64,000 bases of DNA from Candidatus Zambryskibacteria bacterium CG10_big_fil_rev_8_21_14_0_10_42_12 (GTDB lineage Bacteria; Patescibacteriota; Minisyncoccia; Phycocordibacterales; 1-14-0-10-42-12). Position 1 is the stretch's first letter; the number at the start of each line of letters is the position of its first letter. The stretch covers positions 138,250-202,249 of the forward strand of contig PCXL01000011.1 in NCBI GenBank assembly GCA_002787695.1, written 5' to 3'. The notes beneath the pieces were generated by a model, which worked only from the letters and a program-made list of their open reading frames with translations, did not search any database and was not told where the DNA came from. A program made the translations under genes and the position numbers. Of this stretch, positions 20,953-24,072 are shown one piece after another.

Positions 20953-21072
20953 TTAGCCGTTGTTCATCGTCAGCAGCAGTAAGACGAGTCCGAGGAAGGC
21001 AAGGAAGTTTTTGAGGATGCGTTTAGTACGGCCGATTACTGGCGGGTAGTAACGTTCGTTGACGGACATGGC
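20953..21072 (-). CDS. Candidate 39-aa hydrophobic peptide (MSVNERYYPPVIGRTKRILKNFLAFLGLVLLLLTMNNG)
   Basis: AGGAG lies 5 nt upstream of the ATG and a hairpin terminator follows (gcccgagaccac / gtggtcccgggc). Not in the ORF track because it is under 60 aa. Confidence 0.25.
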   Translation of the reverse strand, partial: AMSVNERYYPPVIGRTKRILKNFLAFLGLVLLLLTMNNG

Positions 21073-21322
21073 GGAACTCCTACTAATAGATTGAGGTTCT
21101 TCATGTATGTTGTCAAACAAAACTGTTGATATAGAAAAAAGCGTTGATTTTTGCTACACTTGCCTCGTATCTGTATTGCTCCGAGATCGCTCGCCTCGCG
21201 TCGAGGAGCTTGCGAGTCGAGGCGGGTCTAATGCTCCCATTTTGTTCAAGAGCTAAGCGATTGAATACAAAACGCAGTGCGCCGAAGCTTTAGCGGAGGC
21301 GTAGTAGGACACAGTGAAATTT

Positions 21323-21393
21323 TGCGGGATCGTCTAATGGTAGGACACCAGGTTTTGGTCCTGGGTATCTAGGTTCGAGTCCTAGTCCCGCAG
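21323..21393 (+). tRNA. tRNA-Gln (anticodon UUG)
   Basis: Manual cloverleaf: acceptor tgcggga/tcccgca with the U1-A72 pair and G73 typical of tRNA-Gln, D-arm gtct-aatggta-ggac, anticodon loop ttttggt (34-36 = TTG), T-arm ctagg-ttcgagt-cctag. It is followed by hairpin tgggatat-gac-atatccca. Confidence 0.8.
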
Positions 21394-21656
21394 CCTAAAA
21401 CAAAAGATTGGGATATGACATATCCCAAGAGTATTGTTTTACTGTAGAGACAGGACTCGAACGGCGGAGCGCACAAAGTCCGAGCATAGCAATGCGAGGG
21501 CGCGAGCCGGTGCCCAGACCTTGTATGAGTGACGACGAGTACAAGAGTCGAGGGAGAGAAGCGAAGCGGTCCTAGTCCCGCAGCAATGAACAGAAGCAAG
21601 AAATAAGTCTAATGGCCAGTCTCGCCAAAGCGTGAGCCTAGGCGGATAGGACGCTT

Positions 21657-21717
21657 GGTTTTGGTCCTGGGTATCTAGGTTCGAGTCCTAGTCCCGCAGC
21701 CTAAAACAAAAGATTGG
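21657..21717 (+). repeat. 61-bp exact direct repeat of the tRNA-Gln 3' half plus flank (ggttttggtcctgg...cccgcagcctaaaacaaaagattgg); a pseudo-tRNA attachment-site-like scar
   Basis: Identical to 21351-21412. The upstream part (gtctaatgg + 32-nt insert + aggacgcttgg) resembles the tRNA-Gln D and anticodon arms but carries mutations and lacks the acceptor 5' strand. Further tRNA-Gln fragments lie at 21569-21584 (direct) and 21462-21471 (inverted T-arm). Confidence 0.55.
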
Positions 21718-21745
21718 AATAAGTGGTATTTGATATAATAGTCAT

Positions 21746-22854: not shown

Positions 22855-22862
22855 AAATATGT

Positions 22863-22907
22863 AAAGCACGAAAAAACCTCCTAAAATAGGAGGTTTTTTC
22901 GTGCTTT
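22863..22907 (+). terminator. Intrinsic terminator
   Basis: aaagcacgaaaaaacctcc-taaaat-aggaggttttttcgtgcttt is a long perfect stem with a T-run. Confidence 0.7.
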
Positions 22908-23876
22908 ATGGCTTTCCGAATATCTTTTTCGTATAGTGAACATATGGAAAAAGTGGCTAAACTAGGCATAAAGTGCGTACTCCATGGAAGTTTCAGAAAG
23001 CATTTTGATCTCATTCAACAAACGCGCCAGGTTTTTACGGATGCAGGCATAGAGGTTATCGCACCCAAACTGTCTGATATAGCAGGAGAAAAGGATGGTT
23101 TTGCATATCTTGAAGGAGAAGAAAACGCTGACCCAAGACTGATTGAACTTCTGTATCTCCACAATCTAAAAGATCTCGGACAAAATGGATTTAGTTATTT
23201 TGTAAATCCGGAAGGGTATATTGGAAAAAGTGTGTCGTACGAACTGGGTATTGCACAGCTCTCAAACATACGATGTTTTTTTATGGAAAACCCGAATGAT
23301 CATCCGGCTTATGTACATAAAAATTCTGTGTGGAAGCCTGAAAAACTTGCCGAATATATATTGGATAAAGGTGTACCACCCGACCCTCTCATCAAAAGAA
23401 ATGAAAAAGCACTTCATAAACTATGGGAAGATTTGATGGTGCCAGGTTCTATTGTGGCAGCAGGCGCGATGATTCAATATGAACCGAGGAAGACGACAGA
23501 TAAAAAGGAAATTCTCTTGGTAAAAACACACAAATGGGGAGACAGATATTCTATGGTGGGTGGAAAGGTGCGTCGAAATGAATTGTTTAAAGATGCTTTG
23601 TTGCGCGAAGTGAAAGAAGAAACTGGTCTTTCTGGGAAAGTTGATAGACATGTTTGTACCTTTGATCAAATAAAAAACTCCGGCTATTACAGATCAGGCA
23701 TTCAGCATATTTTTATTGATAACGTAGTAAAAGTGGACAGCAGACGAGTGACACTTAATGAAGAGGCGCAAGACTATATATGGATTACGGCAGAAGAAGC
23801 ACTGGCGTCTCTTCATATTGAACCAAATGCGCGACATACCATAGAGTTATATATAAATTTAATGCCACAACGATGA
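22908..23876 (+). CDS. Two-domain protein: N-terminal nucleoside 2-deoxyribosyltransferase-like (NDT/Rcl-like) fold fused to a C-terminal NUDIX hydrolase
   Basis: The C-terminus carries a perfect Nudix box, GGKVRRNELFKDALLREVKEETG (G-x5-E-x7-REVxEEtG). The N-terminus has VLHGSF (compare YLAGPFF) and GKSVSYELGIAQ (compare DSGTAFEIGYA), both typical of the NDT-like superfamily. The start may be 22944, since the terminator abuts 22908. Confidence 0.65.
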   Translation: MAFRISFSYSEHMEKVAKLGIKCVLHGSFRKHFDLIQQTRQVFTDAGIEVIAPKLSDIAGEKDGFAYLEGEENADPRLIELLYLHNLKDLGQNGFSYFVNPEGYIGKSVSYELGIAQLSNIRCFFMENPNDHPAYVHKNSVWKPEKLAEYILDKGVPPDPLIKRNEKALHKLWEDLMVPGSIVAAGAMIQYEPRKTTDKKEILLVKTHKWGDRYSMVGGKVRRNELFKDALLREVKEETGLSGKVDRHVCTFDQIKNSGYYRSGIQHIFIDNVVKVDSRRVTLNEEAQDYIWITAEEALASLHIEPNARHTIELYINLMPQR

Positions 23877-24072
23877 AAAATATTCTTCATAAGATTTTAA
23901 TCTGAAAATTTTATAATGGGTATGACACCAACGGATCAATAATATACATATATAAAAAGCGTTGTGTGTCTCATAAAGGGCAAACCGTTCTCGGTTTGCC
24001 CTTTATGATAGTTTTGGAAATTCCGTTAAAATATCCTGCGCAAGCCGGACCCTGTTTTGATATAATAAAGCT

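Follow-up and report, generated by a model that had tools for sequence, protein, structure and literature searches.

A conserved, structured element with copies of the neighboring tRNA tail lies behind many tRNA genes of Candidate Phyla Radiation bacteria

Why should a tRNA gene be followed by several fragments of itself, in both orientations? The question is raised by the tRNA-Gln(UUG) gene on contig PCXL01000011.1 of Candidatus Zambryskibacteria bacterium CG10_big_fil_rev_8_21_14_0_10_42_12, which lies in a stretch of 64,000 nucleotides (positions 138,250 to 202,249 of the contig) that we refer to as the window. The usual interpretation of partial tRNA copies is that they are fossil integrase sites, and an initial annotation of this locus had taken them for scars of integration and excision. 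We find that the tRNA-Gln gene is a recombination hot spot with nested small insertions bounded by the tRNA's own sequence. The inner insertion (21442–21584) is one copy, and a degenerate one, of an element that is structured, does not code for protein and occurs in multiple copies in genomes of the Candidate Phyla Radiation (CPR)/Patescibacteria type; we term it the tRNA-tail element and represent it by a covariance model, R1. The element is conserved, has no counterpart in Rfam and stands behind many tRNAs in the ultra-small CPR bacteria. The partial tRNA copies are here parts of this conserved, covarying element, which copies the tail of its neighbor tRNA in both orientations.

ARAGORN reports two tRNAs in the 64-kb window, one of them the tRNA-Gln(UUG). 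From this gene onward, the locus contains the following features:

21323–21395, + strand: intact tRNA-Gln(UUG) gene, called by ARAGORN; the Rfam tRNA model scores 60.9 bits at 21323–21393.
21396–21441, + strand: long terminator-like hairpin directly 3' of the tRNA (AAAACAA...TTGTTTT), with an inner stem at 21408–21428.
21442–21462, + strand: inverted copy of the tRNA 3' part, which makes up the 5' side of element helices A and T.
21463–21568, + strand: GC-rich structured core of the tRNA-tail element (model R1), a degenerate copy located with cmsearch.
21569–21584, + strand: copy B, the 3' end of the element, an exact direct copy of tRNA positions 57–72.
21585–21606, + strand: sequence flanking copy B, homologous to the 3' flank of tRNA-Gln itself but diverged from it.
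21607–21700, + strand: copy C, a decayed tRNA-Gln, without an ARAGORN call and with an Rfam tRNA score of 19.4 bits.
21701–21717, + strand: duplicated 3' flank, which completes a 61-nt exact repeat.

The direct repeat of the tRNA spans 75 nt (21341–21415 and 21647–21721, 95% identity, spacing 306 nt) and contains an exact run of 61 nt (21351–21411 = 21657–21717); a 40-nt probe from this run occurs twice, with 0 occurrences expected. The last 16 nt of the tRNA, GTCCTAGTCCCGCAGC, are found exactly three times in the 64 kb, at 21379, 21569 and 21685, against a chance level of 0.19 matches even with 3 mismatches allowed. In the opposite orientation, AGGACTCGAAC (21452–21462) is the exact reverse complement of tRNA positions 53–63 (T-loop and T-stem 3' strand), and the sequence before it (21442–21451) matches the acceptor 3' strand as a reverse complement that has diverged. 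AGGACTCGAAC is where an inverted copy extending over the tRNA 3' part and its flank ends (21416–21462, 78% over 50 nt), so that the tRNA-Gln and this inverted copy form a palindrome centered at 21418, with the hairpin 21396–21441, which is terminator-like on either strand, at its apex. Neither the repeat nor the 16-nt copy nor the inverted T-arm copy is expected by chance. The initial annotation had recorded most of this correctly, including the intact tRNA, the third fragment at 21569–21584, and the altered anticodon stem and missing 5' acceptor strand of the second copy. Its 61-bp repeat has the right length, but the end coordinate of 21412 is off by one; the D-loop insertion of the second copy measures 31 nt rather than 32 nt; and the inverted T-arm fragment, although real, does not lie at 21462–21471. 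The gap between the tRNA and copy B is 173 nt, and the 61-nt repeat starts 261 nt from the tRNA. Copy B covers the T-stem 3' strand, the acceptor 3' strand and the discriminator, a feature found in nearly all family members.

Assemblies from three other samples (L003 from 21351, L002 and L004 from 21658) are 100% identical to the window where they cover it. As these are independent assemblies, the arrangement is not an assembly chimera; they represent the same strain as the window and are uninformative on variation. Assemblies of related genomes often end at or just after tRNA-Gln (L014, L025, L013, L027, L032, L001), which is consistent with tRNA-tail repeats confusing assemblers. We did not use the contig ends of the window's relatives at 21351, 21381 and 21658 as evidence of excision, because assembler behavior at the 61-nt repeat predicts them. 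Repeats of 13–61 nt that coincide with metagenome contig ends at tRNA loci can mislead tRNA and island annotation in CPR genomes.

The family was discovered with a gapped pattern of GC-rich blocks taken from three copies, and its breadth is established as far as this pattern reaches. Read from their sequences, the window and the orthologous loci of contigs L013 and L015 share the blocks GGCGGAGC, GAGCCGGTGNCCAG and GAGAGGCGAGG. Both L013 and L015 repeat the tail of their own tRNA-Gln ~170–190 nt downstream of the tail in the tRNA, and L013 also carries an inverted copy of its own T-arm. The pattern has 102 matches in metagenome contigs, 18 of which are the true element, located in low-GC contigs that we assign to CPR bacteria by GC content and gene content only. 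Redundancy among contigs reduces the family to ~17 distinct element copies. About 45 other matches (L036–L135, GC near 0.50) belong to one Gly/Ala-rich coding sequence present in many samples and were discarded, together with high-GC matches that arose by chance. Such matches show that gapped GC-rich patterns pick up coding repeats.

All 18 true metagenome copies lie on the tRNA strand, 48–80 nt 3' of the tRNA; the spacing in the window is 69 nt. When copies found later are included, the partner tRNAs comprise 14 anticodons of nine amino-acid identities (Tyr-GUA; Gly-GCC, Gly-CCC, Gly-UCC; Asp-GUC; Gln-CUG, Gln-UUG; Val-UAC; Leu-CAA, Leu-CAG; Arg-CCG; Pro-UGG, Pro-CGG; Lys-CUU). The R1 covariance model was built from 14 copies, with the window excluded. 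Searched with cmsearch, R1 finds a sole copy in the 64 kb, at 21448–21566 (60.5 bits, E 2.5e-13). The 14 model copies and their exact duplicates score 94–118 bits, as expected by construction, whereas independent copies score 54–82 bits; the window falls within the latter range and is thus a genuine but degenerate R1 member. Its core reads GGCGGAGC, hairpin P2, GCGAGCCGGTGCCCAG, hairpin P3, GAGGGAGAGAAGCG, and the R1 core blocks GGCGGAGC, GCGAGCCGGTGNCCAGCCCGA and GAGAGGCGAGG are present in partly altered form (CCCAGACC, GAGAGAAGCGAAGCG). The window copy has fold z-scores of -7.1 (+ strand) and -4.0 (- strand).

Scans of Rfam 15 returned no match but tRNA for the window region (E up to 10) and for nine good copies (E up to 1), the rest being at chance level; neither ARAGORN nor Rfam matches the element to tmRNA or to a tRNA-like family. 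Two patterns found no match in IMG/VR viral contigs, nor was there a match in 50,697 phage records, and plasmids gave chance matches in GC-rich coding sequence only; we rejected a phage or plasmid origin on these results. We found no description of such an element in the literature searched. The nearest published topic is group I introns in Patescibacteria tRNAs, which reside at the anticodon loop (PMC13011429).

On the tRNA strand, the parts of the locus are arranged from 5' to 3' in the following order:

First: the tRNA, then usually an intrinsic-terminator-like hairpin.
Second: a diverging reverse complement of the acceptor 3' strand, which in L056 includes the encoded CCA (TGGTGCGGGTAG).
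Third: hairpin P0, 7–9 bp, its loop often with CUGC.
Fourth: the reverse complement of the T-stem 3' strand and the T-loop.
Fifth: the core, made up of GGCGGAGC, P2, GCGAGCCGGUGNCCAGCCCGA, P3 and GAGAGGCGAGGN'.
Sixth: the sense copy, from the T-loop to the discriminator.

The sense copy reproduces exactly 13–20 nt of the neighbor tRNA 3' end in 15 of the 18 loci, and at two loci (L136 and L116) the tRNA flank is duplicated as well. In the window, the exact ends amount to 11 nt antisense (21452–21462) and 16 nt sense (21569–21584). The tRNA of L054 has an atypical T-loop, GTCAGCA, which is mirrored by an antisense TGCTGAC, and the antisense stem at this locus is a perfect complement of the tRNA 3' strand rather than a copy of the tRNA's 5' strand. 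This identifies the antisense segment as a true inverted copy, as opposed to the 5' half of a tRNA in decay.

In the RNAalifold prediction, the two T-derived pieces pair with each other as a closing helix, and a three-way junction is formed. With 19 copies aligned to the model, 94% of the cells are paired, compared with 31–43% when the partners are slid; double changes occur in 18 of 28 pairs, and none of 500 shuffles reaches the observed values. A variable base, N, covaries with its partner N' (C-G in 8 copies, A-U in 4 and G-C in 4). Unconstrained folds of single sequences recover helix A, P0, helix T, P2 and P3, and the antisense and sense acceptor strands form a helix in them. In the predicted fold the 3' strand is continuous, the 5' strand is broken by the P0 branch at the acceptor/T junction, and the T-loop is zipped and replaced by the core. 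The folded single strand is thus predicted to reproduce the acceptor/T coaxial helix of a tRNA.

How stable is this arrangement among relatives? The window tRNA is flanked by genes for dnaX, RNase III, a glycosyltransferase, DUF1428, NUDIX and M14 peptidase proteins. The best species-level relatives by DnaX are metagenome-assembled genomes labelled Parcubacteria, Paceibacterota and Saccharibacteria (~50–55% identity for full-length matches), which places the window in a genome of the CPR/Patescibacteria. The tRNA-Gln(UUG) gene lies 3' of dnaX and on the same strand in 22 of 30 species-level relatives, and R1 was not found in 28 of the 30 having dnaX. Core similarity does not track tRNA identity: Arg and Lys copies share 94% of their core and Tyr and Leu copies 90%, whereas the orthologous dnaX-tRNA-Gln copies of the window, L013 and L015 are only 60–69% identical to one another. 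One 3.1-kb contig holds three R1 copies behind three different tRNAs, and another contig holds two. At L124:7990–8101 we find a solo Gly-type element whose tRNA has been lost at the CCA boundary, the upstream sequence being unlike any tRNA. In L041/L056 this element and its tRNA-Gly tail are continued by another 3' flank than in L055/L068/L085, and the difference suggests that rearrangements have broken at the element. In L015, a 199-nt unit of tRNA tail and element is repeated 939 nt downstream, around a 205-aa open reading frame (ORF).

The close relatives of the window differ in what lies between the tRNA and its tail copy. Three contigs with DnaX 91% identical to that of the window (L137–L139) have a 100% identical tRNA-Gln, followed by GGACTCGAAC, an unrelated GC-rich core of ~75 nt with two hairpins, and an exact 17–18-nt tail copy (L137:8659–8790, L138:7188–7319, L139:7188–7406). 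The R1 model does not match this core, which may represent another family with the same boundary logic. In L139, it contains an extra 88-nt insertion with a P0-like hairpin and a CUGC loop, and different genes follow beyond it despite a DnaX identical to that of L138. In L140 (DnaX 78%), the tRNA is followed by 1.5 kb, a hairpin orthologous to the one at 21396–21441 of the window and likewise 5' of the element, a degenerate R1 orthologous to the window's, and an exact 17-nt tail copy. The 1.5-kb cargo encodes a DpnI-like restriction endonuclease and a 311-aa ORF, and a second, truncated element lies one ORF further on (the cargo with the first element and tail copy, and the second element, correspond to about 560–2220 and 2700–2810 in tRNA orientation, on the reverse strand); by analogy, the layout resembles a cassette array. 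In L143 (DnaX 65%), the 3' site is empty: 46 nt separate the tRNA from the start of the following gene, and no element is present. Variation of the inter-repeat segment in relatives, which the initial annotation had proposed to look for, is thus present, and the segment is variable cargo rather than an ancient fixed array. Among relatives, the genes on either side of dnaX do not keep the same order. An apparent variation 3' of DUF1428 in L003 is a gene-calling difference, its DNA being 100% identical to the window.

The outer repeat calls for a separate account. Copy C consists of a D-loop fragment, GTCTAATGG (21607–21615, tRNA positions 10–18), the 31-nt insertion (21616–21646) and tRNA positions 19–72 (21647–21700). 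Its anticodon stem is weakened by 3 substitutions, and with an Rfam score below the threshold of 29 bits and no ARAGORN call it is not a tRNA gene by either test. It is diverged 5' of position 29 and exact from tRNA position 29 to 17 nt into the flank. As copy B with its flank (21569–21608) is 78% identical to the end of copy C with its flank (21685–21724), ~116 nt ending in copy C were added after the element was in place. By analogy, the 61-nt block, running from the anticodon stem into the flank, has the classical shape of an attL/attR identity block. Copy C and its flank represent a separate, more recent event, either integration or gene conversion onto an older decayed tRNA-Gln, and the pattern of divergence fits both. 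A second functional, split or permuted tRNA was rejected, as there is no second 5' acceptor strand on the + strand and copy C scores below threshold. So was a minus-strand tRNA or tRNA-like gene at the inverted fragment, whose T-stem would not pair as read from the sequence and where ARAGORN finds none.

What, then, is the tRNA-tail element? We tentatively favor a small, non-autonomous cassette with a folded single-strand attachment site at the tRNA T-arm, a mechanism that we propose by analogy and hold as the leading candidate rather than as settled. The single-strand fold of R1 would serve as the attachment site, a duplex mimic of the tRNA T-arm/acceptor, and a recombinase encoded elsewhere would join it with the T-arm region of a tRNA gene. 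After integration the tRNA would be intact, its original 3' end being left behind the cassette as a direct copy. Cassettes could be empty, as in the window, gene-carrying, as in L140 and L015, or swapped, as in L137–L139; the outer repeat, copy C with its flank, would stem from a second, more recent event. Such a cassette accounts for the order of tRNA, spacer or cargo, antisense copy, core, sense copy and flank, and also for gene-carrying versions and the swapped core.

Several points weigh against it. The alignment behind the covariation counts was itself fitted to R1. Among the contigs compared, near-identical genomes did not provide an empty/filled pair, nor was a circular junction seen. 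The element has no linked recombinase: within 3 kb, an Xer-like integrase gene is present at 1 of about 20 related loci (2.7 kb away). A stem matched to its target cannot easily be moved between tRNAs, yet cores beside different tRNAs are nearly identical, and gene conversion rather than transposition could yield the matching ends. The + strand (tRNA sense) folds more stably in 17 of 17 copies, which fits an RNA role; the ~40 invariant core nucleotides go beyond the need of a recombination-site loop and fit a functional RNA; and in L125 and L136 the element lies between two same-strand tRNA genes, where co-transcription is possible.

The last three points lead to the strongest rival, which we consider somewhat unlikely: a small RNA with a function of its own, which would be transcribed together with the tRNA or immediately after it and would mimic the acceptor/T minihelix of its neighbor. 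Such mimicry could allow excision by RNase P and RNase Z, or a role as decoy or partner of a tRNA-reading factor, and the three-way junction would be either a binding site for a ligand or protein or a catalytic domain. The ends would be kept matched by gene conversion between direct repeats 150–190 nt apart, and the window would hold a decaying copy of the RNA gene. Beyond strand and conservation, this reading draws on the strong covariation, on the constant placement of the element on the tRNA strand, and on a predicted fold whose 3' strand is continuous and whose 5' strand branches exactly at the acceptor/T junction. The sense copy is exact, and the antisense copy drifts yet still pairs, sometimes via G-U or tandem G-A pairs. 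It is harder to reconcile with the terminator-like hairpin and T-run between the tRNA and many copies, and with pairing of the discriminator and the CC of CCA in several copies (L056), which would hinder CCA-end functions. A functional RNA would also have to be patchy, as the orthologous locus has no element in most relatives, the closest ones included; L137–L139 keep the same boundaries around an unrelated core, and the insertions of L140 and L015 carry genes.

The reading of the initial annotation, which we consider improbable, takes the fragments as attL/attR cores of deleted integrase islands, the GC-rich part as an att arm and the downstream genes as a decayed island. Direct repeats of the tRNA 3' part, one of 61 nt from the anticodon stem into the flank, are what it would predict, and it fits copy C best; gene content 3' of the tRNA varies among relatives, and L140 has restriction-enzyme cargo between tRNA and 3' copy. 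Williams is reported to have described, in 2002, sublocation classes at the anticodon loop, the T-loop and the 3' end for integrative elements that target tRNA genes, such as tyrosine-recombinase islands and prophages. The copies at our loci likewise begin inside the tRNA, copy B and the family in general at the T-loop and copy C at the anticodon stem. The likeness to tRNA attL/attR sites extends to the intact tRNA, the direct copy of its 3' part beyond the insert, the identity that continues into the flank, and cargo that differs among relatives. Unlike at tRNA att sites, however, there is no adjacent integrase, the "cargo" usually amounts to no more than ~110–190 nt that are conserved, structured and non-coding, every copy includes the tRNA end in antisense, and one family serves many tRNAs. 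Kilobase-scale cargo of deviating composition between the repeats is absent from the window, and the 1.5 kb of L140 are the single case of cargo on that scale. Behind 14 tRNA species the "arm" is one and the same, conserved in sequence and covarying in structure, whereas decaying arms of independent islands would differ.

As the initial annotation had noted, no integrase is found in the window: 20 ORFs tested contain no integrase, transposase or reverse transcriptase, and no integrase occurs consistently at related loci. Across the ORF neighborhoods of 18 loci, no protein gene is consistently linked to the element. The proposed downstream island was not borne out, since its 4.5 kb have ordinary composition (GC 0.39–0.40, like most of the window), contain no mobility genes and end in no further tRNA copy or R1 element as a far boundary, and gene order varies on both sides of dnaX. 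What had been proposed holds in that the partial copies mark DNA inserted or exchanged at a tRNA prone to recombination; the third and the inverted fragment, however, are not independent scars, since a single conserved, structured element of ~110 nt, present at many tRNAs, has them as its two ends. Insertion or recombination at tRNA-Gln is thus supported by the sequence comparisons, and a classical integrase island is not.

Plain local tandem tRNA duplication with random decay is very improbable: copy C does resemble a decayed tRNA-Gln pseudogene at a compatible spacing of 306 nt, and duplication is possible for copy C alone, but it leaves the inverted copies, the core common to the loci of other tRNAs in unrelated contigs and the exact sense copies across lineages unexplained and is largely refuted for 21442–21584.

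Returning to the cassette, we compared the element with other known systems. Integron attC sites and the attP(+) hairpin of CTX phage, which mimics dif, are recombination sites that act as folded single strands. In the predicted single-strand fold of R1, too, inverted target-like segments ~100 nt apart would pair into a target-like duplex whose structure is kept by covariation, and in L015 and L140, only, ORFs alternate with the element as in attC arrays. R1 differs in its sequence-conserved three-way-junction apex and in its tRNA T-arm/acceptor target, and no IntI or dedicated recombinase was found; an integron integrase was seen near the element neither among the window ORFs tested nor consistently at related loci. 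The closing helix covaries with the tRNA, but the apex is conserved in sequence, and such data fit RNA and single-stranded DNA alike. With miniature inverted-repeat transposable elements (MITEs) and other non-autonomous elements, such as cis-mobilizable elements flanked by att sites, R1 shares its small size, lack of coding capacity, inverted terminal segments and flanking direct repeats of the target; it may also share dispersal in many copies per genome, with three copies on one 3.1-kb contig, two on another and one in the 64 kb of the window. Unlike in MITEs, the inverted segments copy each neighbor tRNA in place of element-specific terminal inverted repeats, and the direct repeats measure 13–48 nt with a fixed T-loop start. 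We know of no parent element with a transposase for R1.

On the RNA side, tRNA-like domains are part of tmRNA, of the bacterial Y-RNA-like YrlA and of the MALAT1 mascRNA. These have in common with R1 a terminal acceptor/T-like coaxial helix on a larger structured body, which could recruit tRNA-processing enzymes, and differ from it in that the predicted R1 fold has no T-loop, the corresponding sequence being paired as a duplex with the core in its place, and in that the R1 helix copies whichever tRNA lies upstream. Group I introns in Patescibacteria are structured inserts at tRNA genes of the same phylum; they sit in the anticodon loop (e.g. 35/36), interrupt the gene, self-splice and match group I models (PMC13011429). 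In contrast, the window tRNA is uninterrupted, the element lies behind it, and our Rfam scans gave no intron-model match. A retroelement was suggested by the antisense TGG and reverse-complement acceptor, which resemble a primer-binding site; as no reverse transcriptase was found and Patescibacteria are reported to be without group II introns (PMC13011429), we kept this as a remote idea only.

It is possible, although we would not yet rely on it, that the tRNA-tail element represents a new class of tRNA-coupled structured nucleic acid: either an attachment site, folded as a single strand, through which small cassettes come and go behind nearly all tRNA genes by imitating the acceptor/T duplex of each, or a family of small RNAs that imitate the acceptor/T minihelix of their neighbor tRNA and display a conserved three-way-junction domain. 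Were it mobile, the most gene-poor bacteria known would possess a minimal cassette system that targets tRNA genes and encodes no protein, and a recombinase acting in trans, possibly a housekeeping Xer-type enzyme, would be implied. If an RNA, it would be an unrecognized tRNA-mimic family, its ~40 invariant nucleotides representing a conservation typical of ribozymes and riboswitches. Under either reading, CPR bacteria would carry a tRNA-templated system without a described counterpart.

Partial copies are found on the 5' side of tRNA-Gln as well, where two further features were identified, with tRNA 5' fragments that the initial annotation does not list:

21127–21233, + strand: conserved upstream region, 88% identical to L137–L139, ending in an old partial tRNA 5' copy, GCGGGTCTAATG (21222–21233).
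21304–21312, + strand: GTAGGACAC, an exact 9-mer copy of tRNA positions 18–26, identified by comparison with L137–L139 and L143.

The first region is presumed to contain the tRNA promoter and leader. In L137–L139, its terminal fragment runs on as ...TCTAATGGTAGGA; in these contigs and in L143 the partial 5' copy (positions about 1–24 of their own tRNA-Gln) is fused to the start of an 81-aa GIY-YIG ORF located directly 5' of the intact tRNA-Gln (L138:6839–7187, likewise in L137 and L139; L143:1867–2254). The window keeps the partial 5' copy and has 70 nt of other sequence where its relatives have the GIY-YIG ORF. The 9-mer is probably the rest of the old 5' copy, split from 21222–21233 by the 70-nt insertion, although by sequence alone a lone 9-mer could be chance. 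Separately, a GIY-YIG ORF lies ~120 nt 3' of the element in L060. In L015 (8712–8881), the 5' flank and tRNA 5' part are duplicated upstream of the intact tRNA (59 nt, 92%), and the duplication breaks in the D-loop after GTCTAATGG, the same breakpoint as in copy C of the window. The third, tRNA-Pro(UGG)-linked locus of L041 also has the tRNA 5' part duplicated upstream, with a break after position 27. The 5' partial copies in the window, L137–L139, L143, L015 and L041 indicate that both sides of the tRNA collect insertions bounded by partial tRNA copies. A possible second conserved element upstream of tRNA-Gln was set aside, as the similarity to L013 that suggested it is weak and covers 41 nt.

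We note a 38-aa ORF with a good ribosome-binding site (20953–21069, - strand) and no Pfam match, located between dnaX and the presumed promoter region of the tRNA. Downstream, two near-perfect intergenic palindromes (22862–22908, 47 nt, 94%; 23971–24008, 38 nt, 89%) lie between small genes and are probably bidirectional terminators.

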